Shown piece after piece: positions 10,076 through 52,813 of a DNA stretch of 64,000 nucleotides. The notes beneath the pieces are model-generated. The model was not told the DNA's origin, did not search any database, and saw only the letters and a list, made by a program, of their open reading frames with translations. Source of the stretch: Candidatus Sulfotelmatobacter sp. (GTDB lineage Bacteria > Acidobacteriota > Terriglobia > Acidiferrales > UBA7541); the NCBI GenBank assembly GCA_035624115.1, contig DASPSD010000031.1:25292-89291 (forward strand), given 5' to 3'. Every line of letters starts with the position of its first letter. Position 1 is the stretch's first letter. A program made the position numbers and the translations under genes.

Positions 10076-10185
10076 TGTGTGAGAACTGCGAAATCAGTCC
10101 CTCAGCGGCTGAAGCCGCCCTGAATTTGCAACACTTACGGCACGGCTGAAGCCGTGCCCTGACGGAAATCCCTGGTTCTCACACA
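10076..10185. mobile_element. MITE-like 110-bp element with perfect 11-bp terminal inverted repeats
   Basis: tgtgtgagaac (10076-10086) and gttctcacaca (10175-10185) enclose two RepB-type hairpins (cagcggctgaagccgccctg, ggcacggctgaagccgtgcc). Confidence 0.65.
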
Positions 10186-10227
10186 GGCTCCGGGGGCGGC
10201 GCCCCAGACGGCCCGCAGTGTCCACCT

Positions 10228-16912: not shown

Positions 16913-17316
16913 CCCTGCACTCCCTTCGCCCCGAAATTCGCTGGGCCGTTGAAGCGGCCCAGGACAAACAGGCCGTGGACATCACGGTGCTGAAATTGCC
17001 GGGCACGGCCGCATTCGCGGAATACTTTTTGTTGTGCTCCGGGCACAGCCAGCCGCAAATCCAGGCGATCGGCGAAGCGATCGAAGAGCGCCTGGAACGC
17101 CACGGCGTGCGCCTGCAGCATCGCGAAGGAAAATCCGGCGCGGAGTGGGTGCTGCTCGATTACGGCGCGTTCGTGGTTCACATCTTCAGCGAGCGGGCGC
17201 GAAGCTACTACGATCTCGAGCGGCTGTGGCGCACCGCCGAGCGCATCGATTTTCCCGCGCCGGTGCGGAACCCGGATTCGCAGCAGGCTTCCGATAGCGG
17301 CGCGACGCAGCCATGA
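16909..17316 (+). CDS. rsfS: ribosome silencing factor RsfS
   Basis: DITVLKL...FAEYFLLCSGHSQPQIQAI...WVLLDYGAFVVHIF...YYDLERLW. Confidence 0.9.
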
Positions 17317-31484: not shown

Positions 31485-32003
31485 TTGGGAGAAAGCGCGC
31501 GAAACGCTGGTCGAAATCGCCGTGAGGGCCGGCGCGCGCAAAGTCGGACGTTGAAAGACTTATTTTCGGATTGGCACAATTGGGCGCCGCTGGCCGGGCT
31601 GGTAGTGCTGGCCATCGTCACCATTATCTTCTGGCTGATGCGCAAGCCGGAAGACGCCGCCGAGATCGAACGCCAGCGCCGCGCCTATTTGAATCGAGTG
31701 GGCAGGATTGTCGAAGGCCAGGTGCTCGAAGTGGTGAATCACCCGGGCGGCGCGAAGGATGCGAAGCGCGCGGGCACATTCGGCAAGCGAGCAGCGGCCA
31801 CGGCCAATGGCGCGCAAAAGCTGCTCTATTACACTTATTCGATTTCCGGCGTCACTTACGAAACCGCGCAGGACATCACCGGCCTCGAAGACCAAGCGCA
31901 TTTGAGCACAGTCATCGCCGGCCAGCACGCCAGCGTGAAATACGACCCCTCGAATCCCAGCAATTCCATCCTGCTCGCCGACGATTGGTCAGGCCTGAAT
32001 TGA
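31485..32003 (+). CDS. membrane protein, DUF3592-like
   Basis: One N-terminal TM helix (WAPLAGLVVLAIVTIIFWLM), then ...YYTYSISGVTYETAQD...VKYDPSNPSNSIL. TTG start is uncertain. Confidence 0.5.
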   Translation: MGESARNAGRNRREGRRAQSRTLKDLFSDWHNWAPLAGLVVLAIVTIIFWLMRKPEDAAEIERQRRAYLNRVGRIVEGQVLEVVNHPGGAKDAKRAGTFGKRAAATANGAQKLLYYTYSISGVTYETAQDITGLEDQAHLSTVIAGQHASVKYDPSNPSNSILLADDWSGLN

Positions 32004-32014
32004 TCTTCTGAACG

Positions 32015-33187
32015 CTACTCAGCGTAGTCCGCGGGTAAATTGTAGAGAAAAACCATTCGAATGCGGATGGATGGGCCGTGAAAAGCATCCGGGAGAGGAT
32101 CGAAGGGCGCCGAATTGCGGATCGCTGTGAGCGCCGCTTGATCCAGGGGAACTTTACCTGAACTTCGCTCAACCGCCGGTCCGTCGCCCAACTTGCCATC
32201 GTGCTGAATGTTCACCACCACGCTGACCATCCCCTTTTCACCGAGCATGACTGGCTCCGGCATCACTGCGTACCAATTCCGCTTGACTGCGGGCAAGAAT
32301 CTTCCGACATACGCCGTGAAATCTACACCCTCAGTGGGCGTAAGGATCTGGACTGCCGCTCCTGCGGCACCCAAGTGACGGCCTCCTGGTGGGCTGCCGG
32401 GAGGGAATGCAGGCACGGGGCCGAATTCCAAAGTATTCAACGTTTCCACAAGTGCTTCCAATCGATCAGGAGTCTGCGCGGCGACAACAAACGTCAAAGC
32501 GTAGCCTCTCACAACAGTCGAGACGATGCTTTCGTACTCAGTGTTGCCCAGCTCTCCCTTGGATTTGAAATCCATCCGCGAAAAATCCTTGCCCCCGAAA
32601 TCGCAATCCTGAGCTTCGTGAATCAGCATGAGGCCCAGATGATCCTCCTGACGATGGCGCCCTTGCATCGTATTGAAGTCTTTGCCGGTTTGGATGCCCG
32701 GTGCGAAAGAGACATCCACTGCAAGAATTGTGACTCCAGGGTTTACGGGGACCAGGGTGTCAAAAGGCCGCTCAAGAAGAACGAGCAGTTGGTGAGTCTT
32801 CGAGGCGAGGAAGCCCAAAACAGCAACACTCGGTGCGGTGGCTTTGGAATCCTGTGCCTTATCCACGTTTAGGAGGAAATCTCCCGTGCGCCCACTTTGA
32901 ACGGATAGGCTCTTCGGGAAGTGATATTTGAATGCGAAGAATTCATTTGTGTAGATGTTGTTCGAGACGAATCCACTTTCCGGCGTGATCCGGCGCGTGT
33001 CAAGCTGCTTGTCGCTCGCATCATTGGATTGTTTCCGGGTTGCAGCTTGCGTCGAGTCACTTTTCGATGGGGAGGGCTGCTGTGCAGCGCCGCGCACGGA
33101 TATGGTGAGAAGCAGGGCAAGGGCTGCCGTCGCGTTTCGCGTGACTGCCGGCTTGGATGACCAGATCATGCGGAACAAAGCCATCAT
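32015..33187 (-). CDS. secreted protein with TonB C-terminal-like domain
   Basis: Signal peptide MMALFRMIWSS...SVRGAAQ. C-terminus YVGRFLPAVKRNWY...VVVNIQHDGKL...LDQAALTAIRNSAPFDPLPD resembles TonB_C. Confidence 0.6.
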   Translation of the reverse strand: MMALFRMIWSSKPAVTRNATAALALLLTISVRGAAQQPSPSKSDSTQAATRKQSNDASDKQLDTRRITPESGFVSNNIYTNEFFAFKYHFPKSLSVQSGRTGDFLLNVDKAQDSKATAPSVAVLGFLASKTHQLLVLLERPFDTLVPVNPGVTILAVDVSFAPGIQTGKDFNTMQGRHRQEDHLGLMLIHEAQDCDFGGKDFSRMDFKSKGELGNTEYESIVSTVVRGYALTFVVAAQTPDRLEALVETLNTLEFGPVPAFPPGSPPGGRHLGAAGAAVQILTPTEGVDFTAYVGRFLPAVKRNWYAVMPEPVMLGEKGMVSVVVNIQHDGKLGDGPAVERSSGKVPLDQAALTAIRNSAPFDPLPDAFHGPSIRIRMVFLYNLPADYAE

Positions 33188-33339
33188 GTTGACTTGCAGC
33201 TGAATGGCCTCAAACGCAAGTCTGCGACCCGATAACGATTTCGTCAAGTAAGGGGAGAGCAGCCCGGCTGGCAGCAGCAGCGGCTTGCTCGAGGTGCGCG
33301 GGTGTGGCACGCTAGCCGCGCCGATTGTGGCAAGCAACC

Positions 33340-34908
33340 ATGACTGAAGACCTCAAGCGTCACGATGGGCTGGAAGAGCTGCGGCGGCGCAGCGCCGAAG
33401 CCGAAGAAGGCGGCGGCAGAGAGCGCCGCGAGCGGCAGCACAAAGAAGGCAAATTGAGCGCGCGGGAGCGCATCGAGCTGCTGCTCGACGAAGGCACATT
33501 CGAGGAGCTCGACAAGTTCGTTCGGCACCGCTGCATCGATTTCGGAATGGAAGAGCAGCGGCCCGCGGGCGACGGCTTCATCACGGGCTTCGGCCGCATT
33601 GACGGGCGGCTCGTTTACGTCTTCGCGCAGGATTTTACCGTGTTCGGCGGCTCGCTTTCGGAAGCCAACGCCTCGAAAATCACGAAAATCATGGACCTGG
33701 CGATCCGCCAGGGCGCGCCGGTCATCGGGTTGAACGATTCCGGCGGAGCGCGGATTCAGGAAGGAGTGATGTCGCTCGCGGGCTACGCAGATATTTTCCT
33801 GCGCAACACGCTCTCAAGCGGCGTGATTCCGCAGATTAGCGCCATCATGGGGCCGTGCGCGGGCGGCGCGGTCTATTCGCCCGCGATCACCGATTTTATT
33901 TTCATGACGCGCGACACTTCCTACATGTTCGTCACCGGCCCGGACGTGATCAAGACGGTCACCCACGAGGAAGTGACCAAGCACGAGCTCGGCGGCGCCA
34001 TGACGCACAACGCCACGAGCGGCGTAGCCCATTTCATTGCCGCCGACGACGCCGAATGCCTGGCAATGATCCGCGAGCTATTGAGCTACATCCCCTCGAA
34101 TAATCTCGAGGACCCGCCGCGCCGCGCAACCTCGGATCCATGGGACCGCGCCAGTCCCGCGTTGAATACTCTCGTGCCAGAGGATCCGCTCAAGCCCTAC
34201 GACATCAAGGACGCGATTCAAGGCGTGGCGGACGACGGCGAATTTTTCGAGGTGCACGAGCACTATGCGAAAAATATCGTGGTGGGATTCGCGCGGCTGG
34301 AAGGGCGTCCCGTGGGAATCGTCGCGAACCAACCGGCGTTTCTCGCAGGTGTGCTCGATATCAACGCGTCGGTGAAAGGCGCTCGGTTCGTCCGCTTCTG
34401 CGACGCCTTCAATATTCCGCTCATCACGTTCGAGGACGTTCCGGGATTCCTGCCCGGAACACAGCAAGAGTTCGGAGGAATTATTCGTCACGGCGCAAAA
34501 TTGCTGTTCGCGTTTGCCGAAGCAACGGTGCCGAAAATTACCGTCATCACGCGCAAAGCCTACGGCGGAGCCTATTGCGTGATGGCTTCCAAACACATCC
34601 GCACCGACATGAATTTCGCGTGGCCGACGGCTGAAATCGCCGTGATGGGTCCCGAAGGCGCGGTGAATATCGTGTACAAGCGCGAGATCGACCGCGCCGC
34701 AGAGGGCGAGCGCGAAAAGTTGCGCCGCGAAAAAATCGAGGACTTCAGGACAAGGTTCGCAAATCCTTACGTGGCCGCCGAGCGCGGCTATATCGACGCG
34801 GTCATCGAGCCTTCGGAAACCCGCGCGAAACTCATCACGGCCTTGCGCTCGCTGGAAACGAAGCGCGACCTCAATCCCCGCAAAAAACACGGCAATATCC
34901 CGCTCTGA
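33340..34908 (+). CDS. pccB: acyl-CoA carboxylase carboxyltransferase (propionyl-CoA carboxylase beta / methylmalonyl-CoA carboxyltransferase 12S)
   Basis: [18 protein letters not shown]...[13 protein letters not shown]...[13 protein letters not shown]...[13 protein letters not shown]...ends KKHGNIPL*. Confidence 0.9.
34845..34908 (+). repeat. direct repeat, left copy (intact 3' end of pccB)
   Basis: 64 nt recur at 41126-41190. The 33-nt identical core is 34855-34887. Confidence 0.85.
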
Positions 34909-35084
34909 AGCCCCTGCTTTCTTCCCCCCAATCTATTTCGAAGCGGGACAGCTCCGATATGAAGCGGCTTCAAAAATGAGAATCCACTAATTTTCTCCCG
35001 CGCAAGGTGAATCTGCCCGGTCTCCCGATTGCTGGATGAACCGCACGAGCCCAAAACGTCCCGGCGGGACCACGGAGTTCCATC

Positions 35085-38051
35085 GTGAGCGATTATCTGG
35101 CGCGGATTACCGGCGCAGGCATTTCGACGGAAGCGAATGAAACGCTCGACCCAAACGATTGGAAGGGCTTTCGCGCGCAGGGACACCGCATGCTCGACGA
35201 TATCCTCGATTACATCGAAACGATTCGCGACCGCCCCGTGTGGCAGCCGATGACAGACGAGGTTCGAGCGCGGATGCGCGGCACTTTTCCGAGCCAGCCA
35301 GCCGATCTCGCCGAAGTCCATGGTGAATTTCTGCGGGATATTCTGCCTTTCGCCGTGGGCAACGTTCATCCGGGTTTCATGGGGTGGGTGCATGGCGGAG
35401 GGACGCCGGCCGGCATGCTGGCGGAGATGCTCGCTGCGGGACTGAACGCCAACGTGGGAGGCCGCGATCAAGCGCCGCTCGAACTCGAGCGTCAAGTGGT
35501 CCGCTGGATGCGCGAGATCTTTGGCTTTCCGGAGGGCGCGACGGGCCTATTTGTCACCGGAACTTCCATGGCGAATTTCATCGCCGTTACGATCGCCCGA
35601 GATGCGGCCCTCGGCTTTGATGTGCGCCGCCGCGGTGTCGCCGCCAAAGAAAAGCAGCTCACCGCTTACGCCTCAACCGGAGTTCACGGCTGCATCGCAA
35701 AGGCCTTGGATCTTTCCGGCATCGGCAGCGATGCGCTGCGGCTGATCCGAACCGACAATCGCTACCGCGTCGATCTCGCCACGCTGGAAAAGGCCATCCG
35801 GTGGGATCGCGATGCCGGGTTGACTCCCTTCCTGGTAGTGGGGACCGCAGGGACGGTGGACACAGGGGCCATCGACGATCTCGCGGGCCTCGCCGATCTA
35901 TGCCAGCGCGAGAAGCTCTGGTTTCACGTGGATGGAGCTTACGGGGCGCTGGCCAGGCTCGCTCCCGATCTCGCTCCAAGACTCGAGGGCATCGAACGCG
36001 CCGATTCACTCGGATTCGATTTTCACAAATGGGGACAAGTGCCCTACGATGCCGGCTTCCTTTTAGTGCGCGATAACGCGCTGCACTTGAACGCTTTCTC
36101 CACCGGCGCGGCATACCTCACGCGGTCCGATCGGGGATTGGCTGCGGGTTCACCCTGGCCCTGCGACTTCGGGCCGGATCTCTCGCGGGGCTTTCGAGCG
36201 CTGAAGACCTGGTTCACTTTGAAGGTTTACGGCACAGACGCGCTGGGAGCGGCGATTTCGCGCACCTGCGAATTAGCGCGCTACCTCGAAAGCCGCATTG
36301 CCGAGACACAGGAGCTCGAGCTGATGGCTCCCGTGGAACTCAATATCGTCTGTTTCCGTTACCGGGCGGAGGAGCCGGACCGCGTCAACGAAAAAATTAT
36401 CATCGGCCTGCAAGAGTCCGGGATCGTTGCGCCGTCTTCCACGGTGATCGGAGGGCGAGTGGCGATTCGAGCAGCAATCGTCAACCATCGGACAGGCCGG
36501 GCGGAGATCGATGCGCTGGTGCAAAATACCCTCTCTCTGGGCCGCTCTCTCCAATACACTCTGCTGCAAGGAAAGGCCGCGCAGCAGACCGCGGAGTTTG
36601 ATCTTCCGGCGGATTCGAAAACAGCCTTGCAGACGGTGGAGCAACAGTTGGTGTCGCAGCCGGGCTCTGTCGCCCTGCGGTTCCTGCGCGCCGGGATCCT
36701 CGAAAAAATGGGCCGGAAGGCGGAAGCCAGGAAGGCCTATATTGACTTGCTCCGCCTCGAGCCATCTCATCTAGGCGCGCTGAACCATCTCGGAAAACTT
36801 CTGGCCGCTGCCGGAAAGAAAATTGCGGCGCGGACGGTCTATTCCGAAGCGATTGCGCGGCATCCCGATGACCCCATGAGCCGCGTAAATTTTGCCGCCC
36901 TTCTAATAGAGGCCGGGGAGCCCGAGAAAGCTCGCGAGCACCTGGAGCACGCCCTGAAAATTGATTCCACGTGCCGGCTCGCCCATGCCGGCTTAGGGTT
37001 CGCGCTTGCGGACCTGGGAGATCCGGAGGGTGCTTCCGAGCACCGGCAAATCGCCTATCGCGGGCACTGCGTGATACCAGTGGAGTATTGCGGCGAGCAG
37101 CCGCCGATCACGGTCTTGGAGCTGGTCACCACCACCGGAGGGGGCGTCCGGGTGGAGAGCTTTTTGAGCGAGGGCATGTTCCAAAAATACCTCGTCGCCA
37201 CGGAGTTCTACGACTCGAGCACGACCTTGCCGCCTCATCAACTCGTAGTCAACGCCATCGGGGATGCCGATACGGCTCGGGCCGCACTGGACGGCGCCGA
37301 AATTCTGCTCCGCTATACAACCGCGCCTGTAATTAATCCGCCGGCAGCGGTCCTCGGGACGGGCCGTTGCGATGTTGCAAGGCGCCTTTCCGGGTTGCCA
37401 GGCGTGATTACTCCGCGGACTTTAATCTTTTCGCGCGAATCACTCGCCGGATCCGACGCCCGCACAATGCTCGATCGTCATGGATTCGAGTTTCCTCTTC
37501 TGCTGCGAACGCCCGGCTTTCACGGAGGCGAACACTTTCTGCGAGTGGAAAGTTTCGATGAACTTCCTGCGGCGCTTCAAGGGCTTCCGGGCCGTGATCT
37601 AAACGTGATCCAGTACCTCGATGCGCGCGGGGCTGACGGAAAGTGGCGCAAGTACCGCGTCATGATGATCGATGGACGGCTCTATCCGCTGCACGTGGCA
37701 ATCTCGCGCCATTGGAAAATCCACTATTTCAGCGCCGAGATGGCAGACAATGCGGAGCACCGCGCTGAGGACGCCAAGTTCCTCGAGGGCATGGCCGGCG
37801 TGCTTGGGCCCCGCGCCCTGACGGCACTCGAGCGAATTCAAAATATCCTCGGGCTCGATTATGGCGGCATTGATTTTGGTTTGAACGAATCCGGCGATAT
37901 CCTGCTCTTCGAAGCAAACGCCACGATGGCCGTTGTTCCATCCGACGCAGACTCCCGATGGGACTATCGCAATCCTACGGTGGAACGAATTAATCAAGCT
38001 GTGTTGCGGATGTTGATTGCGAGGGCAGGGGTGAACAACGAAGCTCGATGA
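35085..38051 (+). CDS. fusion protein: group II PLP-dependent amino-acid decarboxylase + TPR repeats + ATP-grasp-like ligase domain
   Basis: aa 1 to ~495 form a complete Pyridoxal_deC-type domain (HPGFMGW, TGTSMANF, HVDGAYG, PLP-Lys motif SLGFDFHKWG). aa ~530-680 are TPR (AEARKAYIDLLRLEPSH...). aa ~690-988 are ATP-grasp-like (FPLLLRTPGFHGG...WRKYRVMMIDGRLYP...LDYGGIDFGLNESGDILLFEANATM). Confidence 0.8.
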   Translation: MSDYLARITGAGISTEANETLDPNDWKGFRAQGHRMLDDILDYIETIRDRPVWQPMTDEVRARMRGTFPSQPADLAEVHGEFLRDILPFAVGNVHPGFMGWVHGGGTPAGMLAEMLAAGLNANVGGRDQAPLELERQVVRWMREIFGFPEGATGLFVTGTSMANFIAVTIARDAALGFDVRRRGVAAKEKQLTAYASTGVHGCIAKALDLSGIGSDALRLIRTDNRYRVDLATLEKAIRWDRDAGLTPFLVVGTAGTVDTGAIDDLAGLADLCQREKLWFHVDGAYGALARLAPDLAPRLEGIERADSLGFDFHKWGQVPYDAGFLLVRDNALHLNAFSTGAAYLTRSDRGLAAGSPWPCDFGPDLSRGFRALKTWFTLKVYGTDALGAAISRTCELARYLESRIAETQELELMAPVELNIVCFRYRAEEPDRVNEKIIIGLQESGIVAPSSTVIGGRVAIRAAIVNHRTGRAEIDALVQNTLSLGRSLQYTLLQGKAAQQTAEFDLPADSKTALQTVEQQLVSQPGSVALRFLRAGILEKMGRKAEARKAYIDLLRLEPSHLGALNHLGKLLAAAGKKIAARTVYSEAIARHPDDPMSRVNFAALLIEAGEPEKAREHLEHALKIDSTCRLAHAGLGFALADLGDPEGASEHRQIAYRGHCVIPVEYCGEQPPITVLELVTTTGGGVRVESFLSEGMFQKYLVATEFYDSSTTLPPHQLVVNAIGDADTARAALDGAEILLRYTTAPVINPPAAVLGTGRCDVARRLSGLPGVITPRTLIFSRESLAGSDARTMLDRHGFEFPLLLRTPGFHGGEHFLRVESFDELPAALQGLPGRDLNVIQYLDARGADGKWRKYRVMMIDGRLYPLHVAISRHWKIHYFSAEMADNAEHRAEDAKFLEGMAGVLGPRALTALERIQNILGLDYGGIDFGLNESGDILLFEANATMAVVPSDADSRWDYRNPTVERINQAVLRMLIARAGVNNEAR

Positions 38052-38078
38052 GTATTTCGTCTTGGCGGTCACCGCCAT

Positions 38079-39461
38079 TTATTTGTTTGTGCCCGACCGG
38101 ACCCGAGGCGCCGCTGCGGGGGCGCGGAATAAGTTGCAGGCTTTGGTAACCGCCGCCTGTGTACGAAGCTCCCTGGCTGGAATTTCCAGGTTCGCCCGCG
38201 TCAGGGCCAAATCCCTCTCGGCTGCTCTTTTGCGGAACCCGCCGCCTGTGATGTGAAGGAGCACATGGGATCCTGGGATGATTCTGTTGGACCTGACTGC
38301 CTGCATCAGCGCGGCGAGCGCAACCCCAGCGGCCGGGTCTAGATCAATCTCCTCGCATTCTTCAAAAAGCCGCATGGCCCGAAGAACTTCATTATTTCTG
38401 ACCCCGAACAGATCGCCTTGGCTTTCCTTCAGGACGTCAAACAAACCACCGCCAATTGCATAGGGCGGCCTTTGATTCGAAAGAACGGAGGCCAGAATTC
38501 GTCGCGTCAAGGCTCTGGCTCGGCTCCGTTCCATGCGGATGAATTCGCGCCGGCCTCTCCTCCAGGAATCCAGAATGGGGGTGAAGGGCAAGTTCTGGCT
38601 GAGCATCAGCCGGGGGAGCGTGCGACTGAATCGTGAATTTTGGGTCAATCGTTTTGCGGCCACATGGGCCGCGATGGCTCCAGCGCCGCTGCTAATGGCT
38701 TGAAAATAGTAATCCGGCAGGGCGCCGATGGTTTCCACGGCGCTCAGCATCGCGGCTCCCAGCCCGTCGCGGCGCCCCACGTTTCGGACACCGCCCTCAC
38801 GCCGGAATCCTTCGCGCCGCGAAACAGCGTCCCCCAAGGCAATCGCGTCAGAATAGTCCGCATTCCCTGAGAGAGAGACGATTTTCACAGAGGGGCCAAG
38901 CGGGCGGGTGAACTGCATTGCCTTCATACCGCTCGCGGGAACGACAATCAGGCAGCGAATGCCGTTTTCAGAGCAGATTCGAGCGAAGGCTGCTGCGGAA
39001 TTCCCAGCCGATGCCACCACCAGAACTTCTGAGCCGCTCTGGGGAATTCGAGACAGAACCCCGTAAGCTTCCAGCTCCTTGAAAGTGGCGGTCTCGAGCC
39101 TGGCGCCTCTTTCCGGCCAATATCCGCTGAAGGTGATCCAAAGATTCGGAAGGCGGAGAATCGAGCTGAGACGCGCGCTTTTGTAAGTGACGGGAATAGC
39201 GGCTCCGGCCAACAGGTTCGCTGCAGGCAACCAACAGCGGTATCGGTACAAACCATCTTGTGTCTCATCGCATACGAGCGTGCGAGAAGAATACAGGGTG
39301 GTCAGCAAGGAAGCGGAGTGCGAGCGGGGACATTCGAGCATCCAACCATCGTCCGTGAATCGACAGCCGCAGGCCGGGCAAGCGAGCTGATAGTGCGCTG
39401 CCTTCTCGCTGGGGCGTTCCCGTTTGGGGACATCGAGATCCCGAATCGGGCTTTCTTTCAC
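38079..39461 (-). CDS. threonine synthase-like fold-type II PLP enzyme, resembling the cysteate synthase subgroup
   Basis: N-terminal Cys-rich segment (YQLACPACGCRF...LECPRSH). PLP-Lys context ETATFKELEA. VVASAGNSAAAFARICSENGIRCLIVVP. Subgroup assignment comes from memory of family motifs and is not verified. Confidence 0.65.
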   Translation of the reverse strand: MKESPIRDLDVPKRERPSEKAAHYQLACPACGCRFTDDGWMLECPRSHSASLLTTLYSSRTLVCDETQDGLYRYRCWLPAANLLAGAAIPVTYKSARLSSILRLPNLWITFSGYWPERGARLETATFKELEAYGVLSRIPQSGSEVLVVASAGNSAAAFARICSENGIRCLIVVPASGMKAMQFTRPLGPSVKIVSLSGNADYSDAIALGDAVSRREGFRREGGVRNVGRRDGLGAAMLSAVETIGALPDYYFQAISSGAGAIAAHVAAKRLTQNSRFSRTLPRLMLSQNLPFTPILDSWRRGRREFIRMERSRARALTRRILASVLSNQRPPYAIGGGLFDVLKESQGDLFGVRNNEVLRAMRLFEECEEIDLDPAAGVALAALMQAVRSNRIIPGSHVLLHITGGGFRKRAAERDLALTRANLEIPARELRTQAAVTKACNLFRAPAAAPRVRSGTNK

Positions 39462-39688
39462 TCTTCAGGAACCTCATTGCGGGCATCTGGCGGCACTGCG
39501 ATTTAATTATTTTTTTCTTAGAATTGCTCGCCGCGCGCGCGGCGTCCGGACGGACTCTTGCAATCGAGGTTCCCCAGCCTGCCTCCGCAATGGATGGCGG
39601 AACAGAGTGGGGCCAGTCCGAGTGGCACAGCGATTGCAAATCTATCCCGGCGGCCGGGTCGGCCGAACCGGCCATTCAAGATAGACCG

Positions 39689-41116
39689 ATGAAATCCAAT
39701 TCAAGCTTGGTAGATCAGAGATTTCGGCGGGCCCTCGCCCTCCAAAAGCAGGGCCACACCGTGGAGGCTAGAAACGAATACCTGAAGGTGCTTGAAATCG
39801 ATCCTTCGCACGGGCCAGCGCTCAACAACGTTGGGAGCCTCTTGCTCGCCGCGGGAAACCTTCCAGCCGCGCGAATCGCGTATGCCGAGGCCGTCGCCCG
39901 GCATCCGAATGATCCCGTGAGCCGGTCGAATTTAGGGAATCTGCTGCGCGAAGAAGGTGAGCTGGCCGCCGCACGCGAGCACTATGAGCACGCTCTACGC
40001 GTGGATCCGAATCTCGTGCAGGCGCATGAGGGTTTGTCCTATGTGCTGGCGGACCTGGGAGATGAAGAGCGCGCCGCATGGCACCGCCGCAAAGCCTTTG
40101 AACATCGTTTCCTGATCGCCTTGCCCTATCTCGGAAAAGGCAAGGGAATATCGGTGCTGCAGCTCGTGTCGTCCAACGGCGGCAACGTGCGAACGCGGGA
40201 ATTTCTCGATGAGCGCGTGTTCCGGACCTTTGTTGTCCTTCCAGAGTTCTACGATCGAAAGGTTGCCTTGCCTCCGCATCAAATGGTATTCAATGCCATC
40301 GGTGACGCCGACGTCGCAGCAGCGGCGCTCACGGCTGCCGAGCCTTTTCTCGCTCTCACTCAAGCACCCGTCATCAACCCGCCCTCGGCCGTGCTCGCTA
40401 CGCGCCGGCTCGACATATCCAGGCGCCTTTCGGGATTGCCGGGGGTGGTTACCCCCAGAACGGTCGCCCTGCCGCGAGAGATTCTCACTGCTCCCGACGC
40501 CGAGGCCGCGCTCGCCGCACAGGGATTCCGATTCCCCGTCCTATTGCGAACGCCCGGTTTCCACACCGGCGACCATTTTGTGCGGGCCAAAATTCCCGAT
40601 GAGCTTCCTGCCGCGCTCGCGCAGCTTCCCGGGCAACAATTGCTGGCAATCCAGTACCTCGAGGCACGCGGGACCGATGAAAAGTGGCGCAAGTACCGAG
40701 TGATGATGATCGATGGGAAGCTCTACCCGCTGCACGTGGCCCTCTCCTCGAATTGGAAGGTTCACTATTTCAGCTCCGAAATGGCGGATAATTCCCTTGG
40801 CCGCGCCGAGGAAGCCCAGTTCCTGGCCAATATGGCCGGTGTCCTCGGGCCGCGCGTCTTGGACGCTCTCACGCGGATTCAGAAAACTCTCGGCCTCGAT
40901 TACGGTGGAATCGATTTCGGATTGAACCGGGACGGCGACCTGGTGCTCTTCGAGGCGAATGCCACGATGGTGGTCCTTTCCCCCGGCGCGGACCCCCGCT
41001 GGGACTACCGTCGCACTGCGGTGGAGCAAATTTACCAAGCGGTGGCGAACATGCTGCTGGCCAGAGCGAACGCCGGTGCGCAGCACACGAATTGGAGTTC
41101 GGCCGGTGCGGATTGA
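39689..41116 (+). CDS. TPR + ATP-grasp-like protein, paralog of the C-terminal half of 35085..38051
   Basis: Aligns along its whole length with aa ~520-988 of the fusion protein (e.g. WRKYRVMMIDGKLYPLHVA, LDYGGIDFGLNRDGDLVLFEANATM). The start could also be upstream (track ORF starts at 39524). Confidence 0.8.
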   Translation: MKSNSSLVDQRFRRALALQKQGHTVEARNEYLKVLEIDPSHGPALNNVGSLLLAAGNLPAARIAYAEAVARHPNDPVSRSNLGNLLREEGELAAAREHYEHALRVDPNLVQAHEGLSYVLADLGDEERAAWHRRKAFEHRFLIALPYLGKGKGISVLQLVSSNGGNVRTREFLDERVFRTFVVLPEFYDRKVALPPHQMVFNAIGDADVAAAALTAAEPFLALTQAPVINPPSAVLATRRLDISRRLSGLPGVVTPRTVALPREILTAPDAEAALAAQGFRFPVLLRTPGFHTGDHFVRAKIPDELPAALAQLPGQQLLAIQYLEARGTDEKWRKYRVMMIDGKLYPLHVALSSNWKVHYFSSEMADNSLGRAEEAQFLANMAGVLGPRVLDALTRIQKTLGLDYGGIDFGLNRDGDLVLFEANATMVVLSPGADPRWDYRRTAVEQIYQAVANMLLARANAGAQHTNWSSAGAD

Positions 41117-41125
41117 GCCTTGTTG

Positions 41126-41190
41126 GCGCTTGCTTGAAACGAAGCGCGACCTCAATCCCCGCAAAAAAAAACGGCAATATCCTGATCTAG
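41126..41190 (+). repeat. direct repeat, right copy (degenerate pccB 3' remnant)
   Basis: Core 41136-41168 is identical to 34855-34887. An extra A and substitutions destroy the KKHGNIPL reading. Confidence 0.85.
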
Positions 41191-41214
41191 GTATTTCTGC
41201 TTCTGCTTGCCGCC

Positions 41215-43092
41215 TCAGGCGCGCTTGCCGACGTACCAAGGCGCACTCAGCGTAAAAATGCGCTGGTTCCCGCGGGAGAGCAACACCCATTCCAAGAGCC
41301 GGCCACGCTGATTGTGAAAGAAATATTCATACCATCTGTCTTCCACAAGCTCGGGGATCACCACGATGATCGTGCGGGAAGGGTTTTTCGCTGAAAGGTC
41401 GAGAACATACTGCACGATGGGAATGATGACGAAGCGATAGGGCGAGGGGAGGATTTCCAGCGTTGGCGGGACCGCGCCCGCCGCGCGGAACGGCCCGGCC
41501 ACGTACCGCTCCCAATCCATTTGCAGCAATTCCGATTGCTCGGCAGGATCCACGTGAAGGGCGATCACTTCCGGCGAAAGCCGCGCGGCAAACTCAATCC
41601 CCTGGCGGGTGATGCTGCTCCAGCGGTCGATTGCAATGATGGCAATCGGATGCTCGTTGGCGTTGGCAGGGTGCGCTGGAACCATGCAAGTGGTTTCCAT
41701 CTTCACCATGTGATAGTGGCGGCGGACAATCGTGAAGAAGAACATCGTAAACGGAATGAAAAGCAGAGTAATCCACGCGCCTTCGGCGAACTTCGCCACG
41801 AGCACGACGATCACGGTGACACCGGTGACGAACGCGCCGAGTCCATTCACGATTGCGCTCTTCTCCCAGTGCGGGACGCGGTTTTTCCACCAGTGCATCA
41901 CCATGCCGGCCTGCGAAAGCGTGAAAGCGAGAAATGCGCCGATGGCGAAAAGCGGGATGAGCCGGTCGGTGACGCCGCCGAACGCGATCAGAAGACTGCC
42001 CGTCAGGAAAGCCAGAACGACGATGCCATAGCTATAAACCAGCCGCCGGCCGCGATACCCGAACACATGAGGAAGGTAATTATTCTGCGCGATGGCGCGG
42101 CAGAGGCGCGGAAAATCCGCAAAGGCCGTGTTCGCCGAAAGCGATAGAACGGCAAGGATCGAGGCGATGGTGAGGTAGTAGAAGTAGCCTTTGCCGAAAA
42201 CGGCGGCAACAAGCATCGAGAGAAGGCTCTGATACCCGGGCTGGCCGGGATCCGTGGCGGCGATGCCATATGCCTTCACGAGATAGGAAATTCCAGCCAG
42301 CAGCACGCCGAGGAGAAAAATAATCACGCTCAGGGTGCGCTGCGCATTCTTGACGGTGGGCTCGCGAAAGGCCTTCACGCCGTTGCTCACCGCCTCGACG
42401 CCGGTCAAAGCCGTGCAGCCGCTTGAGAAAACTTTGAGCAACAGCCAGAATGTCACGGCCTGAGTCACCGGCGGCGGAGGCGGAGGCACAGTCACGGGCA
42501 CGGGATGCCCGCCGGCCTGTATGACGCGGAGGATGCCCGCACCGATCGTAATCAAAAGCGTGGCGACAAAGAGAAAAGTGGGGATCGAAAAGGCTAACCC
42601 GACTTCGCGCACGCCGCGAAGGTTGAAGATCGTGATGATGATCAGGATGATCACGCACAGCGAAACTGTATAGGGCTGCAACGACGGCACCGCCGAAATT
42701 AGTGCGCCCACCCCTGCGGAAATTCCCACGGCCGCCGTGAGGATGTAATCGGCAAGGAGTGCCGCCGCCGCAAGCAAGCTCGCGCTCGCGCCAAGATTGA
42801 ATCGCGCTACGGTATAAGATCCACCGCCCGAGGGGTAAGCCGCAATCGTCTGGCGATAGGAAAAGTACACGATCACTAGCAGCGTAATGATCGCCGCGCT
42901 GACGGGGATCAAGTAGCGCACGCCAAGTGCGCCCAAGGGAATCAGGAGGCTCAAAGCGGCTTCCGGACCGTAGGCGGCGGAACTGAGCGCATCGAGGCCG
43001 AAAATGGGGATGCCTTGCGTCGCTCCAATCTGTTCCGCGCGTTCGTCGCTCGTCTTGATAGGCTTGCCGACAACCATGTCAAGAATGTTCAT
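41215..43092 (-). CDS. APC-superfamily transporter with C-terminal cytoplasmic domain
   Basis: GIPIFGLDALSSAAYGPEAAL..., about 12 TM helices, plus a ~200-aa soluble C-terminal domain. Confidence 0.8.
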   Translation of the reverse strand: MNILDMVVGKPIKTSDERAEQIGATQGIPIFGLDALSSAAYGPEAALSLLIPLGALGVRYLIPVSAAIITLLVIVYFSYRQTIAAYPSGGGSYTVARFNLGASASLLAAAALLADYILTAAVGISAGVGALISAVPSLQPYTVSLCVIILIIITIFNLRGVREVGLAFSIPTFLFVATLLITIGAGILRVIQAGGHPVPVTVPPPPPPVTQAVTFWLLLKVFSSGCTALTGVEAVSNGVKAFREPTVKNAQRTLSVIIFLLGVLLAGISYLVKAYGIAATDPGQPGYQSLLSMLVAAVFGKGYFYYLTIASILAVLSLSANTAFADFPRLCRAIAQNNYLPHVFGYRGRRLVYSYGIVVLAFLTGSLLIAFGGVTDRLIPLFAIGAFLAFTLSQAGMVMHWWKNRVPHWEKSAIVNGLGAFVTGVTVIVVLVAKFAEGAWITLLFIPFTMFFFTIVRRHYHMVKMETTCMVPAHPANANEHPIAIIAIDRWSSITRQGIEFAARLSPEVIALHVDPAEQSELLQMDWERYVAGPFRAAGAVPPTLEILPSPYRFVIIPIVQYVLDLSAKNPSRTIIVVIPELVEDRWYEYFFHNQRGRLLEWVLLSRGNQRIFTLSAPWYVGKRA

Positions 43093-43338
43093 TGGCAGCT
43101 CCCGATTCTCGCAACGCTCAATTCGGGAAAAGATTGTGTTGCCCGCCGGACTGCGCAGCGCTCGGAATGGGATGGCGGGACCCTCTCAGGGTTAAGAAAT
43201 TCTCCGAGCGAAACGCGTTAAAATCGGCGCAAATTAGTATCACAGAACCGGTTTATCTCAAATGAACACGGCGGGCTGGGAGTGTGAATGCGATTCGCTC
43301 TGCGGTCGACCGAAGCCGGGGGGCAATGTGGGGCGCGA

Positions 43339-44100
43339 TCAGGTTTTCGTCGCGCGCTTTTTCCTGTGTGAATGCGCCCGAGCCCTGTGCGCAAGAGGCA
43401 AAATTTGGACACCACCCTTGCCGCCGATGAATACCTGCGAGGCAAATCCAAGAAAGAGTCCGTGCTCCATCACACCGACCACGTGGTCGAGGTGGTGTGC
43501 GATTTCTTTGGGGTCGGCCATCGGACCGAAGGCGCAATCAATGATGTAGTGGCCGCCGTCGGTGATGAACGGCTTCTCGTTCGTACCAAAGCGAAGCTTG
43601 GGATGCGCGCCTAGCCCGACCAATTTTCGCTCCGTGGCCTGCCAGCCAAAGGGCGCCACTTCGACAGGGACGGAGACGAGCGAGCCCAGACGTGCGACGA
43701 CCTTGCTTTCGTCCGCCACCACAATCATGCGCTTGCTGGTAGCAGCGACGATTTTTTCCCGCAGGAGCGCCCCGCCATGACCCTTGATGAGAAACAGCGT
43801 TCGCCGCTCGACTTCGTCCGCGCCGTCGATCGTCAGATCGATCTCGGAACATTCGCCGAGCGTAGCCAGCGGGATGCCAAGGCTGCGCGCCTGTTCGGCA
43901 GTGCGTTCGGATGTCGGGATGCCGGTGAATCGAAGCCGCTCTTCGTGGAATCGTCGGCCCAGGGCGGCAACGGCAAATGCGGCCGTTGATCCCGTGCCGA
44001 GGCCAACCACCATTCCGCTCTCGATAAGTTTCGCGGCCGCCTCAGCCGCAGCTCGTTTCCACTGATCCTGTTCCGAAGCGCTCATCGCCTGGCTCACCAT
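43339..44100 (-). CDS. rpiA: ribose-5-phosphate isomerase A
   Basis: VVGLGTGSTAAF...IDLTIDGADEV...LIKGHGGALLREKIVA. Confidence 0.9.
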   Translation of the reverse strand: MVSQAMSASEQDQWKRAAAEAAAKLIESGMVVGLGTGSTAAFAVAALGRRFHEERLRFTGIPTSERTAEQARSLGIPLATLGECSEIDLTIDGADEVERRTLFLIKGHGGALLREKIVAATSKRMIVVADESKVVARLGSLVSVPVEVAPFGWQATERKLVGLGAHPKLRFGTNEKPFITDGGHYIIDCAFGPMADPKEIAHHLDHVVGVMEHGLFLGFASQVFIGGKGGVQILPLAHRARAHSHRKKRATKT

Positions 44101-44210
44101 AGCTCGTGCCCACCCGCGGGCATCATATCCGGTCAATTGCGGGTTGCCAACCCTGGCCGGGCGGGTGCGAATGCCGCGTGCTAAGATGGCGCCCGCGAGT
44201 GCGAGCCAGA

Positions 44211-45755
44211 ATGTTCCGCAAAATTTTGATAGCCAACCGGGGAGAGATCGCGGTGCGCATTATGCGTGCCTGCCGCGAGCTGGGAATACGTTCGGTGGGA
44301 GTGTTCAGCGATGTGGACCGGGCTGCGCTGCATGTGCGCCTCGCGGACGAGGCGTATCCAATTGGCCCCGCGCCCTCGCGTGAGAGCTACCTTGTAATTG
44401 AAAAAATTCTCGGCGTTGCAAAGCGAGCCGGGGCCGACGCCATTCATCCGGGCTACGGCTTCCTTGCCGAAAATCCGGCGCTCCCGCGCGCCTGCGAAGC
44501 CGCTGGCGTGACGTTCATTGGGCCTGCGCCTGAAGCAATGGAAAAACTGGGAGCGAAGACCGCGGCGCGCCATCTGGCGCGCGCGGCTAAAGTGCCGACG
44601 GTTCCGGGAACTCTCGACCCGATTGAAAAAATTGAGGACGTGGCGGACATCGCCCGGAAAACAGGCTACCCGATTTTGCTGAAGGCCGTGGCGGGCGGCG
44701 GTGGAAAAGGGATGCGGCTCGTCGAGAGTGAAGGCCAGCTGGCCGCGGCGTGGCGCGATGCCTCTTCAGAAGCACAAAACGCATTCGGTGACGGACGCCT
44801 CTATCTTGAAAAGTACCTTTCGAGGCCGAGGCACGTCGAGATTCAGGTGCTCGCGGATCAGCACGGGAAAGTGATCCATCTGGGCGAGCGCGAATGTTCC
44901 GTGCAGCGGCGCCATCAGAAAGTGATTGAGGAATCGCCTTCGCCGGTGATGACACCCGAACTTAGGCAAGCAATGGGCGAAGCCGCCGTCAAGCTTGCGC
45001 GCGCGGGAAACTACACGAACGCGGGCACCGTTGAATTTCTCGTGGATGAGCACCGAAATTTCTATTTTCTGGAAATGAATACCCGCCTTCAGGTGGAGCA
45101 TCCTGTGACAGAGATGGTGACGTCGCTTGATCTGGTGAAGCTCCAAATTCATATCGCCGCGGGCGAGCCGCTGCCGATTTCGCAACAGGATGTTGCGCTG
45201 CGCGGTCACGCCATCGAATGCCGGATTTATGCGGAAGACCCGGACAACAACTTCTTTCCCTGTCCGGGGACGGTTGGTGCGCGGCGAGTGCCTGGTGGCC
45301 CCTCGGTGCGGCTTGATGATGGAGTCTATCCCCGCTGGACAATCCCGAACGAGTACGATCCGCTGCTCGGAAAGTTGATTGCCTGGGGAGCGGACCGCCC
45401 CGAGGCAATCGCGCGGCTTCAGAGAGCGCTTGCGGAATACTATGCGGGGGGCATCAAGACGAATATTTCGCTCTTCCAGCGAATCCTCGCTGCGCCTGAT
45501 TTTCAGAAAGGCGAGATCCACACCCGCTGGCTCGATGATTTCCTCCGCGAGGAGCAGGATCGGCGAAGTGCGAGGGCGGAAGTCGAGACAAGCGCGGCGC
45601 ACGTAAGGGAAGCCGCAATCTTGGCTGCGGCGTTGTGGCACCGATCGATGAATGGTCACGATGGGAATCAACCGGGAAACGCGGCGACAGGATCCCCATC
45701 ACGCTGGAAGACGGAAGCGCGGCGCGAGCAGGTGGAGCGCGACCCGCAGCCGTGA
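44211..45755 (+). CDS. accC: biotin carboxylase subunit of an acyl-CoA carboxylase
   Basis: MFRKILIANRGEIAVRIMRACRELGI...HPGYGFLAEN...GGGGKGMR...EMNTRLQVEHPVTE. No BCCP domain in this ORF. Confidence 0.9.
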   Translation: MFRKILIANRGEIAVRIMRACRELGIRSVGVFSDVDRAALHVRLADEAYPIGPAPSRESYLVIEKILGVAKRAGADAIHPGYGFLAENPALPRACEAAGVTFIGPAPEAMEKLGAKTAARHLARAAKVPTVPGTLDPIEKIEDVADIARKTGYPILLKAVAGGGGKGMRLVESEGQLAAAWRDASSEAQNAFGDGRLYLEKYLSRPRHVEIQVLADQHGKVIHLGERECSVQRRHQKVIEESPSPVMTPELRQAMGEAAVKLARAGNYTNAGTVEFLVDEHRNFYFLEMNTRLQVEHPVTEMVTSLDLVKLQIHIAAGEPLPISQQDVALRGHAIECRIYAEDPDNNFFPCPGTVGARRVPGGPSVRLDDGVYPRWTIPNEYDPLLGKLIAWGADRPEAIARLQRALAEYYAGGIKTNISLFQRILAAPDFQKGEIHTRWLDDFLREEQDRRSARAEVETSAAHVREAAILAAALWHRSMNGHDGNQPGNAATGSPSRWKTEARREQVERDPQP

Positions 45756-51649: not shown

Positions 51650-52813
51650 ATGTTTAAGCCGGGGATAACGTTCTGGAAAGGAATCCTGGCGGCGGTGCTG
51701 GCCGCTGGCGCTTACGCCACGGTCCTTCGATTTACTCGAGGGCTGGGCGCCACGACAAATTTGAGTGACGCTTTCCCCTGGGGCCTGTGGATCGGATTCG
51801 ACGTGATGTGCGGCGTGATGCTGGCCGCCGGCGGCTTCACCCTGACGGCCACCGTATATATCTTTCATCTGAAAAAGTTTCAGCCGATTGTGAGACCTAC
51901 GATTCTTACGGCCTTCCTCGGCTATCTATTGGTTGTTGTCGCGCTGCTTTTCGACCTCGGGCGCGGATACCGCATCTGGCATCCCCTGGTTATGTGGAAT
52001 CCAAGATCGGTCATGTTCGAAGTGGCGTGGTGTGTGACGCTTTACACGACGGTGCTCTCGCTGGAATTTGCGCCGGTGATCTTCGAGCGCCTGCGAATGG
52101 AAAAGCTGCTGAAAATCCAGCATGCCGTGTCGATCCCCCTCGTTATCCTGGGTGTGATCCTCTCGACGCTGCATCAGTCGTCGCTCGGGAGCCTGTACTT
52201 GATCGTCCCGAACAAACTGCATCCGCTCTGGTACACGCCGCTTCTGCCCGTGCTTTTCTTTGTTTCCGCGATTTGTGTCGGCCTGGCCATGACGATTTTC
52301 GAATCCTGTATGAGCTCACGGCATTTCGGGAAGCAACTCGAGATTTCACTGTTGCGGAGTCTTGGGCGGACGCTTCTTGTGGCGCTGTGTGTGTATTCCG
52401 TCATCCGCTTTCAGGATTTATTCGAGCGAGGGGCGCTGAAACTCGTAGCCCATCGGAGCTATGAGGCGAATCTGTTCTTGCTGGAAGTGGTGATGGGCTT
52501 GATTGTCCCGATCGGATTGCTGATGGTTCCAAAAATCCGTGAAAGCGCCGGGGGACTCTACCTCAGCTCCGTGCTGGTAGTCCTCGGCTTCGTCACGAAC
52601 CGAATGAACGTGGCGATCACGGGCATGGAATCTTCAGCCGGAATGCACTATTTCCCCAAATGGACAGAACTGGCAGTCACAGCGAGCATCATCGGCGTGG
52701 CATTCGCCATTTTCGCGCTCGCGGTGAAGTATCTGCCGATCTTCCAGGCGGAAAATGGGCACGAGGCTGCTCTGGAGCCGCGTGCGCCCGAGTTGTCCAA
52801 TGCCAACCCCTGA
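51650..52813 (+). CDS. NrfD/PsrC/HybB-family integral membrane subunit
   Basis: 387 aa, about 10 TM helices. The gene directly follows the FeS subunit, as in HybAB/PsrBC-type modules. Confidence 0.75.
   Translation: MFKPGITFWKGILAAVLAAGAYATVLRFTRGLGATTNLSDAFPWGLWIGFDVMCGVMLAAGGFTLTATVYIFHLKKFQPIVRPTILTAFLGYLLVVVALLFDLGRGYRIWHPLVMWNPRSVMFEVAWCVTLYTTVLSLEFAPVIFERLRMEKLLKIQHAVSIPLVILGVILSTLHQSSLGSLYLIVPNKLHPLWYTPLLPVLFFVSAICVGLAMTIFESCMSSRHFGKQLEISLLRSLGRTLLVALCVYSVIRFQDLFERGALKLVAHRSYEANLFLLEVVMGLIVPIGLLMVPKIRESAGGLYLSSVLVVLGFVTNRMNVAITGMESSAGMHYFPKWTELAVTASIIGVAFAIFALAVKYLPIFQAENGHEAALEPRAPELSNANP

Follow-up and report, generated by a model that had tools for sequence, protein, structure and literature searches.

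Why would a bacterium carry, on a single polypeptide, an enzyme that makes an amine and an enzyme that could spend ATP to join an amine to something else? The question is raised by a gene in a 64,000-nucleotide stretch of Candidatus Sulfotelmatobacter sp. (assembly GCA_035624115.1, contig DASPSD010000031.1, positions 25,292 to 89,291; the whole stretch is called the window below). It encodes a 988-amino-acid (aa) fusion of a group II pyridoxal phosphate (PLP) decarboxylase, a block of tetratricopeptide repeats (TPR) and a last domain of ATP-grasp fold. The answer that we favor, tentatively and at somewhat less than an even chance when taken as a whole, is that taurine derived from cysteate is joined by the ATP-grasp domain, as an amide, to a carboxylate of an acceptor that the TPR block recruits and that is probably flagellar. 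Each of the three domains is of a known kind, and the logic of pairing an amine-making decarboxylase with ATP-grasp ligation is known too; what is new is that a single chain carries both activities, separated by TPR, together with the divergence of the ATP-grasp family, the pairing with a cysteate synthase and the flagellar neighborhood. The fusion family is annotated just as ‘pyridoxal-dependent decarboxylase’ and is uncharacterised; in the literature searched, no paper was found on a decarboxylase-TPR-ATP-grasp fusion, nor on the large TPR-ATP-grasp family behind it.

Three domains on one chain

The open reading frame (ORF; coordinates of this and other features are collected in Table 1) has zero internal stops across its 988 codons, and a GGAG lies 8-9 nt upstream of the GTG start. 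The first domain is matched by Pfam Pyridoxal_deC (PF00282) over residues 64-427, which correspond to profile positions 8-375 of 375 (E 9e-66; 222.5 bits against a curated cut-off of 27), so the whole domain is covered. Four residues, H201, D283, H314 and K315, are invariant across 28 full-length homologs; D-F-H314-K315-W aligns with d-a-H-K-w of the 4obu structure, and the HVD283GAYG and H201 motifs align as well. The PLP lysine, the aspartate at the pyridine nitrogen and the ring-stacking histidine of group II enzymes are thus all present. Residues 510-657 are matched by TPR_2, TPR_14, TPR_8, TPR_19 and other Pfam TPR families, and these tandem 34-residue helix-turn-helix repeats appear as nine confidently modeled helices (predicted local distance difference test score, pLDDT, ∼78-93 for the block in a full-length AlphaFold2 model). 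As a whole, that full-length model is poor (pLDDT 64.5; predicted template-modeling score, pTM, 0.40; decarboxylase core 285-387 below 50), and the arrangement of the domains, or any channeling between them, is not readable from it; the likely cause is a shallow alignment together with the modeling of a dimeric decarboxylase as a monomer.

An earlier, model-made note on this DNA (the original prediction) had described a 988-aa ORF without stops or frame changes and, in residues 1 to ∼495, a full group II decarboxylase with the motif DFHKWG. The ORF is indeed uninterrupted, and Pfam, the motif (as DFHK315WG) and the invariant PLP-site residues agree on the decarboxylase. Its TPR region at ∼530-680 and ATP-grasp region at ∼690-988 are both real, but the limits of the first move to 510-657 and the second starts nearer 660. 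A profile scan of the kind that it recommended found Pyridoxal_deC and TPR in the fusion but no ATP-grasp or RimK match, a point taken up below.

A proposed route from cysteate to a taurine amide

The proposed scheme has three steps. First, from the gene context, the neighboring cysteate synthase would make L-cysteate from O-phosphoserine and sulfite, and the N-terminal decarboxylase would strip the alpha-carboxyl group to yield taurine. Second, to go by fold and conserved residues, the ATP-grasp domain would phosphorylate an acceptor carboxylate with ATP, and the amine of taurine would attack the acyl-phosphate to form an N-acyl-taurine amide. Third, as domain type and neighborhood suggest, the TPR block would recruit the acceptor, most likely a flagellar protein or a protein-bound glycan, flagellin for example, on which a sulfonate would thereby be installed. 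The stand-alone TPR-ATP-grasp paralog found nearby could be responsible for a second ligation, or else be a partner subunit. Our confidence falls in order from cysteate as substrate, through a taurine amide as product, to a flagellar target, each of which we infer; for a carboxylate on a flagellar protein or glycan as the acceptor it is low to moderate.

The simplest order of the two reactions is suggested by general enzymology. A PLP decarboxylase requires a free alpha-amino group, and its product is without the carboxylate next to it; decarboxylation would therefore come first, with its product serving the ligase as amine nucleophile. As that product has no carboxylate left, the carboxylate to be activated by ATP would have to come from a second substrate.

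Versions in which the parts are separate genes speak to the same link. In a Bryobacterales metagenome-assembled genome (MAG; locus L011, the same as L056) the gene directly after a 499-aa TPR-ATP-grasp gene encodes a separate 511-aa decarboxylase, 68% identical to the N-terminal domain of the fusion, and the next gene is a distant ATP-grasp paralog that lacks TPR; in an alphaproteobacterial MAG (L076) these three genes recur, joined by a formyltransferase-like gene. By the Rosetta-stone argument these split, adjacent versions, along with the fused loci and nine more loci with both parts adjacent in different frames (described below), support a coupling of decarboxylation to ligation. The original prediction that the fusion couples amine formation to ligation gains from them as far as the genetic link goes, whereas coupling at the level of the enzyme is something we infer.

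The two TPR-less paralogs are ∼420 aa long (L011, 11086-12342; L076, 11642-12922), share 47% identity with each other and ∼30% with the family, and are matched by no Pfam model; the formyltransferase-like gene of L076 (11012-11638) lies between the two ligases. In two proteobacterial MAGs (L068 and L069) a pair of TPR-ATP-grasp paralogs is divergently arranged; the pair in L068 (7551-9458 on the minus strand, 9353-11002 on the plus strand) stands beside genes for a sulfate permease (SulP/STAS) and an MFS transporter, and the vicinity holds no decarboxylase gene.

The cysteate synthase pairing

The gene convergent with the fusion in the window, which the original prediction missed, is the proposed supplier of the decarboxylase substrate. 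Its product scores 424.7 bits against the NCBIfam equivalog model for cysteate synthase (TIGR03844, cut-off 324.9), and a protein identical to it is named cysteate synthase by NCBI. Scanning metagenomes with a profile of cysteate synthase yielded 80 loci, 38 of which form a close clade with a synthase at least 59% identical to that of the window. In 26 of the 38 the fusion lies directly upstream and divergent; three have a second decarboxylase and/or an Asn-synthase-like gene; two (L120 and L121) have a stand-alone TPR-ATP-grasp gene divergent from the synthase, as in the window; one (L124) has just a 49-residue fragment of an ATP-grasp match; and the other six are mostly too short to judge. 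Outside the 38, the fusion is also present at L164, where the synthase is 61% identical over a truncated match. None of the other 41 loci (synthase at most 59% identical, all but one at most 56%) has the fusion, the second decarboxylase, the Asn-synthase-like gene or a TPR-ATP-grasp gene as a neighbor. Pairing of cysteate synthase with the fusion is near-universal in one Terriglobales clade, close to a rule.

The contigs of three close homologs of the synthase were also examined, and all three adjoin a group II decarboxylase. In L092/L093 and L096 this is the fusion, divergent from the synthase; in L094/L095 the gene after the synthase encodes another group II decarboxylase, with 36% identity to the domain in the fusion. 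Two unrelated decarboxylases beside the same cysteate synthase suggest that what the synthase makes is what gets decarboxylated.

The cluster in L094/L095 consists of an Asn-synthase-like gene without a glutaminase domain (5873-7627), the cysteate synthase (8001-9329) and the other decarboxylase (9405-10934). The Asn-synthase-like gene may be a non-orthologous replacement of the ATP-grasp enzyme in amide formation.

Flagellar neighbors and the identity of the acceptor

A second locus set consists of the best 80 species-representative genome loci found with an ATP-grasp profile. Forty-six of them are fusion loci: 42 have a single continuous ORF of at least 900 aa, and four have ORFs of 782-874 aa in which the decarboxylase is partly covered. 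When neighboring ORFs of at least 100-120 aa were clustered, the families that recur around fusion loci were flagellar. This recurrence and the adjacent cysteate synthase, neither of them noted in the original prediction, are the most informative clues. A flagellar structural or motor gene lies within 10 kb of 12 of the 46 fused loci versus 1 of the 34 unfused ones; in the metagenome set, flagellar genes occur at 12 of the 38 loci centered on a close-clade cysteate synthase versus none of the 42 centered on a distant one. By our estimate, a random gene in a flagellated 5-Mb genome would be expected this near flagellar genes a few per cent of the time.

The arrangements vary. Genes for FlgL, FlgK, FlgI and FlgH follow the fusion in three loci, L015 (from another Candidatus Sulfotelmatobacter MAG), L025 and L037; in L037 a flagellin gene comes immediately downstream, in L042 one lies immediately upstream, and flagellin genes fall within the flank in L015, L031 and L053. 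MotA/MotB genes are directly upstream in Bryobacterales L028 and L065, and in L040 and L053 they come 0.6-1.3 kb after the fusion; L040, L053 and L065 also have HD-GYP and HDOD response regulators close by, and MotB is found near L055 and L073. Around the synthase/fusion pair one finds a GGDEF cyclase, an EAL-HDOD protein, FliN and FliM (L023, L098, L100, L101 and L110; in L115 the first three, with no FliM detected), or a small DUF protein, MotB and MotA (L102, L103, L107, L113, L118 and L119), or FlgK and flagellin (L117). In the alphaproteobacterial L076, flgK-flgL-flagellin stand on one side of the split genes and flgI on the other. This makes at least six types of flagellar arrangement in three lineages, and since they differ, a single inherited synteny is insufficient to account for them.

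The genomic record also holds observations that weigh against the proposed scheme, as do several scores of the individual domains and one feature of the taurine modification of Clostridium difficile flagellin, given below with the subjects they concern. Neighbor clustering around the 80 genome loci found no universally conserved partner gene. A cysteate synthase lies within 10 kb in just 4 of the 46 fusion loci, and the pairing seen in the window is repeated in L021, L023 and L025 only, among the 80. No flagellar gene lies within the 64-kb window, and five other relatives that were examined all have unrelated neighbors. Part of the flagellar association may, moreover, come from inherited synteny rather than from independent events.

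The main rival explanation keeps the chemistry and changes the acceptor, which would be a free small molecule, for instance glutamate or some other acid. The reaction would then yield a soluble metabolite containing taurine or another amine (an osmolyte, a signal or a piece of a cofactor), the TPR block would serve for oligomerisation only, and the amino-acid permease of the window would transport the substrate or the product. Pairs of a decarboxylase and an ATP-grasp enzyme do make small molecules, as MfnA and MfnD make gamma-glutamyltyramine; most fusion loci are without a conserved partner, as expected if the substrates are common metabolites; and GGDEF, EAL and HDOD genes are frequent nearby, so that the link with motility could be regulatory. 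The permease does adjoin the paralog in the window, but it is conserved at no other locus. TPR modules fused to enzymes, for their part, commonly hold protein or peptide partners, and genes for flagellin and hook-associated proteins are direct neighbors in several lineages. We consider a small-molecule acceptor unlikely on balance, while giving it real weight.

Transfer of taurine to a recruited flagellar acceptor can also be stated in a more exact form: the fusion and the stand-alone members of its family would install an undescribed post-translational modification, a taurine amide, on flagellar Asp or Glu side chains, on a C-terminal carboxylate or on a glycan carboxylate, with the TPR block selecting the target. 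That all of these particulars should prove correct is rather unlikely. Should they do so, one of the most abundant soil phyla would have a dedicated bacterial route to taurine (cysteate synthase plus decarboxylase), in which one polypeptide both produces the amine and uses it up; a hitherto undescribed sulfonate modification, probably flagellar, would put a permanent charge on flagella in soil Acidobacteria and in some Proteobacteria; and thousands of genes would have their annotation corrected.

The substrate of the decarboxylase

The sequence alone does not name the substrate of the decarboxylase; it is the gene context that points to conversion of L-cysteate to taurine, which we propose with moderate confidence. 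Among solved structures the nearest relatives are the Ruminococcus gnavus Trp decarboxylase 4obu (243.7 bits), 7xin (220 bits) and 6eei (198 bits), that is, aromatic (Trp, DOPA, Tyr) decarboxylases. CSAD and GADL1, which share PF00282, form taurine and have cysteate among their substrates, come below them at 144.8 and 151.6 bits; they differ further in being stand-alone proteins without a ligase. By its sequence, then, the domain is not a CSAD-type enzyme. The best NCBIfam match is L-2,4-diaminobutyrate decarboxylase at 178.5 bits against a cut-off of 900, and all NCBIfam equivalog scores of the domain are far under their cut-offs.

These scores are what one would expect if the decarboxylase acted on an aromatic or a diamino acid, so that tryptamine, tyramine or a diamine were ligated and the cysteate synthase pairing had an indirect or different meaning; most fusion loci, after all, have no adjacent cysteate synthase. 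Such a substrate fits poorly with the divergent synthase/fusion pair that is near-universal in one clade, and with the second, unrelated group II decarboxylase that also stands beside a cysteate synthase. The substrate pocket also differs: by our reading of the alignments, W101-V-H-G-G-G-T107 occupies the place of Y79-F-P-T82 in the pocket of AADC, and the segment is unlike that of aromatic decarboxylases. We regard an aromatic or diamino substrate as quite improbable.

Two segments of the decarboxylase are near-invariant and specific to the family, residues 101-107 (35385-35405) and 348-366 (36126-36182), and are candidates for substrate recognition; that the Gly-rich segment might form an anion hole for the sulfonate is speculation. 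In human AADC, Tyr332 is the catalytic-loop tyrosine that protonates the carbanion. The near-invariant catalytic loop of the fusion, RGLAAGSPWPCDFG, is without Tyr, and the loops of 4obu and 7xin are likewise Tyr-free there, though alignments of the loop are unreliable; the full segment 348-366 reads RGLAAGSPWPCDFGPDL, again with no Tyr.

The last domain as a divergent ATP-grasp domain and probable ligase

At the level of sequence the last domain is hard to place. Residues 660-988 have no Pfam or NCBIfam match at E ≤ 0.01; the paralog has a faint 32-residue RimK match (NCBIfam, E 0.0016). Among searches of PDB sequences, a single-sequence query gave noise only, and a profile built from 16 diverse sequences of the domain found just the VanG D-Ala:D-Ser ligase, at E 1.3. 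Probabilities from hhalign to E. coli RimK and DdlB were just 10-25%, and these alignments served the register of the motifs only. With scores this weak, assignment of the fold rests on structure comparison by Foldseek. An AlphaFold2 model of residues 655-988 is confident (pLDDT 87.2, pTM 0.86), and its top Foldseek matches in the PDB are all ATP-grasp proteins: DdlA (8evv; E 2.8e-11), synapsin, RimK (5zct), LysX/ArgX (5k2m), ITPK1 and the graspetide ligase PsnB (E values of 1e-10 to 3e-11 over the set), each with probability 1.0 and a template-modeling score of ∼0.5. Model and matches together place the domain in the three-subdomain ATP-grasp fold.

The register of the motifs agrees across the VanG match and the hhalign alignments to RimK and DdlB. 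G-G-I-D930-F ... F-E943-A-N945 aligns with the Mg-binding Asp ... Glu-x-Asn (D-x12-E-x-N in RimK; D257, E270 and N272 in DdlB), R-K856-Y-R858-V-M-M with the RimK strand D-I-R-C-L-V-V, and L-L-L-R808-T-P-G-F-H-G-G with the strand of the phosphate lysine (IKP in VanG, V-V-K in RimK, I-V-K-P in DdlB). Residues D930, E943, N945, K856, R858 and R808 are invariant across the 28 full-length homologs and the 16 domains, down to 39% identity. Motifs and fold thus identify the Asp ... Glu-x-Asn triad that binds Mg and ATP, while at the position of the phosphate-binding Lys before the Gly-rich loop there is instead an invariant arginine, Arg808. The last domain, as modeled, is a divergent ATP-grasp domain with a complete predicted metal site and Arg in place of the canonical Lys. 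The motifs singled out by the original prediction, RKYRVMMIDG, GIDFG and FEANATM, are present and bear the invariant residues; of the nucleotide-binding residues on which it made this assignment depend, the Mg-binding Asp, Glu and Asn are intact but the Lys is replaced.

Could the domain be something other than a ligase, a kinase-like or nucleotide-binding regulatory module, or an inactive scaffold, so that the protein is a decarboxylase with a regulatory tail? The replaced lysine and the missing match to any curated ATP-grasp hidden Markov model (HMM) would suit such a tail, as would the presence of synapsin and ITPK1 high in the list of fold matches. The fold is matched no less well by RimK, LysX and Ddl ligases, however; Arg can bind phosphate; and the invariance of D930, E943 and N945 and of the K856-Y-R858 strand across the whole family, 2721 clusters in all, argues for retained catalysis. 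A regulatory or inactive tail seems to us very unlikely.

Distribution of the fusion and origin of its modules

A search of 5.8 billion proteins found more than 120 full-length fusion homologs at 63-99% identity, one of them likewise 988 aa long and 99% identical; nearly all of the best 120 matches are 949-1155 aa long, with 96-100% query coverage and 63-76% identity. Named homologs are Terriglobales (Tunturiibacter lichenicola, Terracidiphilus, Candidatus Acidiferrales), the fusion is found in complete genomes of cultured strains such as T. lichenicola and T. psychrotolerans, and Silvibacterium also carries the gene. In the species-representative set, nine of the 80 loci have the decarboxylase and the TPR-ATP-grasp part adjacent in different frames, which reflects either true gene fission or frameshift errors in MAGs, and the remaining loci have stand-alone TPR-ATP-grasp genes. 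Fusions are found in both Terriglobales and Bryobacterales. The original prediction had called the fusion unusual, recommended a survey of other genomes and wished to see a chimeric assembly excluded by long reads; the survey, with 42 of the 80 loci fused, finds it common across both groups, and this wide occurrence settles the matter of a chimera without long reads. That the fusion is an artefact, an assembly chimera or an error that removed a stop codon, for which the nine frame-split loci might be cited, is effectively refuted by the recurrence of the same continuous architecture in over half of the loci and in more than 120 proteins that were assembled independently, among them some from complete genomes of cultured strains.

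The nine frame-split loci (L060, L061, L075, L078, L080, L084, L088, L089 and L027) have the gene order of the fusion.

The ATP-grasp domain belongs to a much larger family. An exhaustive HMMER search (E ≤ 1e-3) collected 2721 clusters at 50% identity, annotated merely as ‘tetratricopeptide repeat protein’ or ‘pyridoxal-dependent decarboxylase’; most members are 450-650 aa long with the ATP-grasp domain C-terminal, and they come from Acidobacteriota, Alphaproteobacteria, Spirochaetia and Alicyclobacillus. Because the TPR-ATP-grasp combination is the older and broader family, spread over several phyla, the decarboxylase appears to have been added to it; of the two possibilities that the original prediction left standing, addition to an existing module or loss from it, the first is the one retained. 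A neighbor-joining tree of the ATP-grasp domains interleaves fused and stand-alone proteins, so that the clade needed to hold 70 fused sequences takes in 70 stand-alone sequences as well. This tree is rough, and truncated gene calls may account for some of the stand-alone proteins; no number of fusion or fission events was read from it, and the sole conclusion drawn is that the wider family is unfused.

Some relatives of ∼860-920 aa (for example P0146, 889 aa; among P0122-P0148) carry two tandem ATP-grasp domains per chain. This hints that the family works as paired ligase domains, as the fusion and the paralog of the window might.

Comparison with known systems

The closest analogy in logic is with archaeal methanofuran biosynthesis, in which a tyrosine decarboxylase, MfnA, and a tyramine-glutamate ligase, MfnD, are two separate proteins. 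There too a group II PLP decarboxylase makes an amine and an ATP-grasp ligase joins it to a carboxylate; but there is no TPR, the substrate is tyrosine, the product is a small-molecule cofactor precursor, and the MfnA model gives the decarboxylase of the fusion 85.5 bits against a cut-off of 299. A second analogy is capsule amidation in Campylobacter jejuni. The PLP enzymes Cj1436 and Cj1437 provide ethanolamine phosphate and serinol phosphate, and the ATP-grasp amidoligase Cj1438 (TupA-like) attaches the amine to glucuronate of the capsule. PLP enzymes thus make a small amine from a precursor related to phosphoserine, and an ATP-grasp enzyme puts it on a carboxylate of a surface macromolecule; the PLP and ATP-grasp subfamilies are others, however, the proteins are unfused and without TPR, and the amines are not taurine.

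RimK and LysX/ArgX resemble the last domain in fold, and their substrate is a carboxylate at the C-terminus of a protein; the G-G-I-D motif of the fusion family, moreover, has Gly, as in RimK, where Ddl has its catalytic Arg255. They differ in that membership is not recovered with HMMs, in the Arg that the fusion family has for the ATP-binding Lys, in the nucleophile, an amino acid for these ligases and, in the proposed scheme, the amine left by decarboxylation, and in the added TPR block and decarboxylase. For the proposed role of the TPR block, the parallel is FlmG of Caulobacter, a flagellin glycosyltransferase whose N-terminal TPR binds flagellin: a TPR module delivers a flagellar protein to the modifying enzyme fused to it. 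The catalytic domain of FlmG is a glycosyltransferase and not ATP-grasp, and there is no homology beyond TPR.

Taurine itself has been described on flagellin. In Clostridium difficile ribotype 027 the type B flagellin glycan is capped with taurinyl-Ala-Gly, and the ATP-grasp protein CDR20291_0245 is required (PMC5207245, PMC5207246); in the literature searched, this was the only taurine-containing flagellin modification found described. The likeness to the proposed scheme lies in taurine on flagellin, a genetic requirement for an ATP-grasp gene, and the genes beside fliC. The bond from taurine to alanine is, however, N-alkyl and not an amide; the locus is not reported to contain a decarboxylase or a cysteate synthase; and the ATP-grasp protein is unfused, lacks TPR and belongs to a Firmicute. 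As to a possible role as a graspetide (RiPP) maturase, a survey paper on graspetides mentions TPR proteins as unexplained neighbors only.

Surroundings of the fusion in the window

The fusion, the cysteate synthase, the stand-alone paralog and an APC-family permease form a four-gene block with carboxyltransferase and biotin carboxylase genes on either side; it looks as if the block sits between two subunit genes of one biotin-dependent carboxylase. The paralog, which is identical to an NCBI protein of Candidatus Sulfotelmatobacter sp., is 58% identical to fusion residues 507-982 over 476 aligned residues, in keeping with the original prediction that it has the TPR plus ATP-grasp part only; its ORF spans 39524-41116, with the annotated start at 39689. 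Whether the permease belongs to the system is uncertain, as no other locus examined has one beside the fusion or the cysteate synthase. The fusion and cysteate synthase genes converge on a gap of 27 bp, which holds a hairpin, TGGCGGTCACCGCCA, that may be a shared terminator; a scan for promoters and terminators found site counts no higher than in shuffled sequence, so that the hairpin is weak evidence.

Table 1. Positions of the fusion gene, its domains and key residues, and of neighboring features in the window
Feature	Position	Strand	Basis or remark
Decarboxylase-TPR-ATP-grasp fusion gene, complete	35085..38051	+	Stop-free ORF, 988 aa, GTG start
Group II PLP decarboxylase domain, residues 1-495	35085..36569	+	Pfam PF00282, E 9e-66
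His201	35685-35687	+	Invariant in 28 homologs
Asp283	35931-35933	+	Invariant in 28 homologs
PLP Lys315	36027-36029	+	Invariant in 28 homologs
TPR block, residues 510-657, nine helices, ∼4.5 repeats	36612..37055	+	Multiple Pfam TPR families and model
ATP-grasp fold domain, residues 660-985	37062..38039	+	AlphaFold2 model, Foldseek
Arg808 (place of ATP-phosphate Lys)	37506-37508	+	
Lys856 and Arg858	37650-37658	+	
Asp930, predicted Mg ligand	37872-37874	+	
Glu943, predicted Mg ligand	37911-37913	+	
Asn945, predicted Mg ligand	37917-37919	+	
Terminator-like GC hairpin, then T-run	38063..38077	+	Consensus scan only
Cysteate synthase homolog, PLP beta-replacement enzyme	38079..39461	-	NCBIfam TIGR03844
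Stand-alone TPR + ATP-grasp paralog, 475 aa, ATG start	39689..41116	+	Divergent from cysteate synthase gene
APC-family amino-acid permease, 625 aa	41215..43092	-	Pfam AA_permease_2, E 4.5e-29
Carboxyltransferase gene, methylmalonyl/propionyl-CoA type	33325-34908		
Biotin carboxylase gene	44106-45755		

An Rfam scan of 32000-45000 found no riboswitch or other RNA from which a ligand might be deduced. A defense-system reading was rejected, PADLOC having matched no catalytic domain and given generic TPR matches only. GC content is uniform at ∼0.60, with no compositional sign of a foreign island or a recent insertion. Elsewhere in the window three unrelated genes were noted, a deoxyhypusine-synthase-like gene (8426-9427), a sigma-54 activator (17313-18251) and an NrfD-like membrane subunit of a polysulfide reductase (51650-52813).

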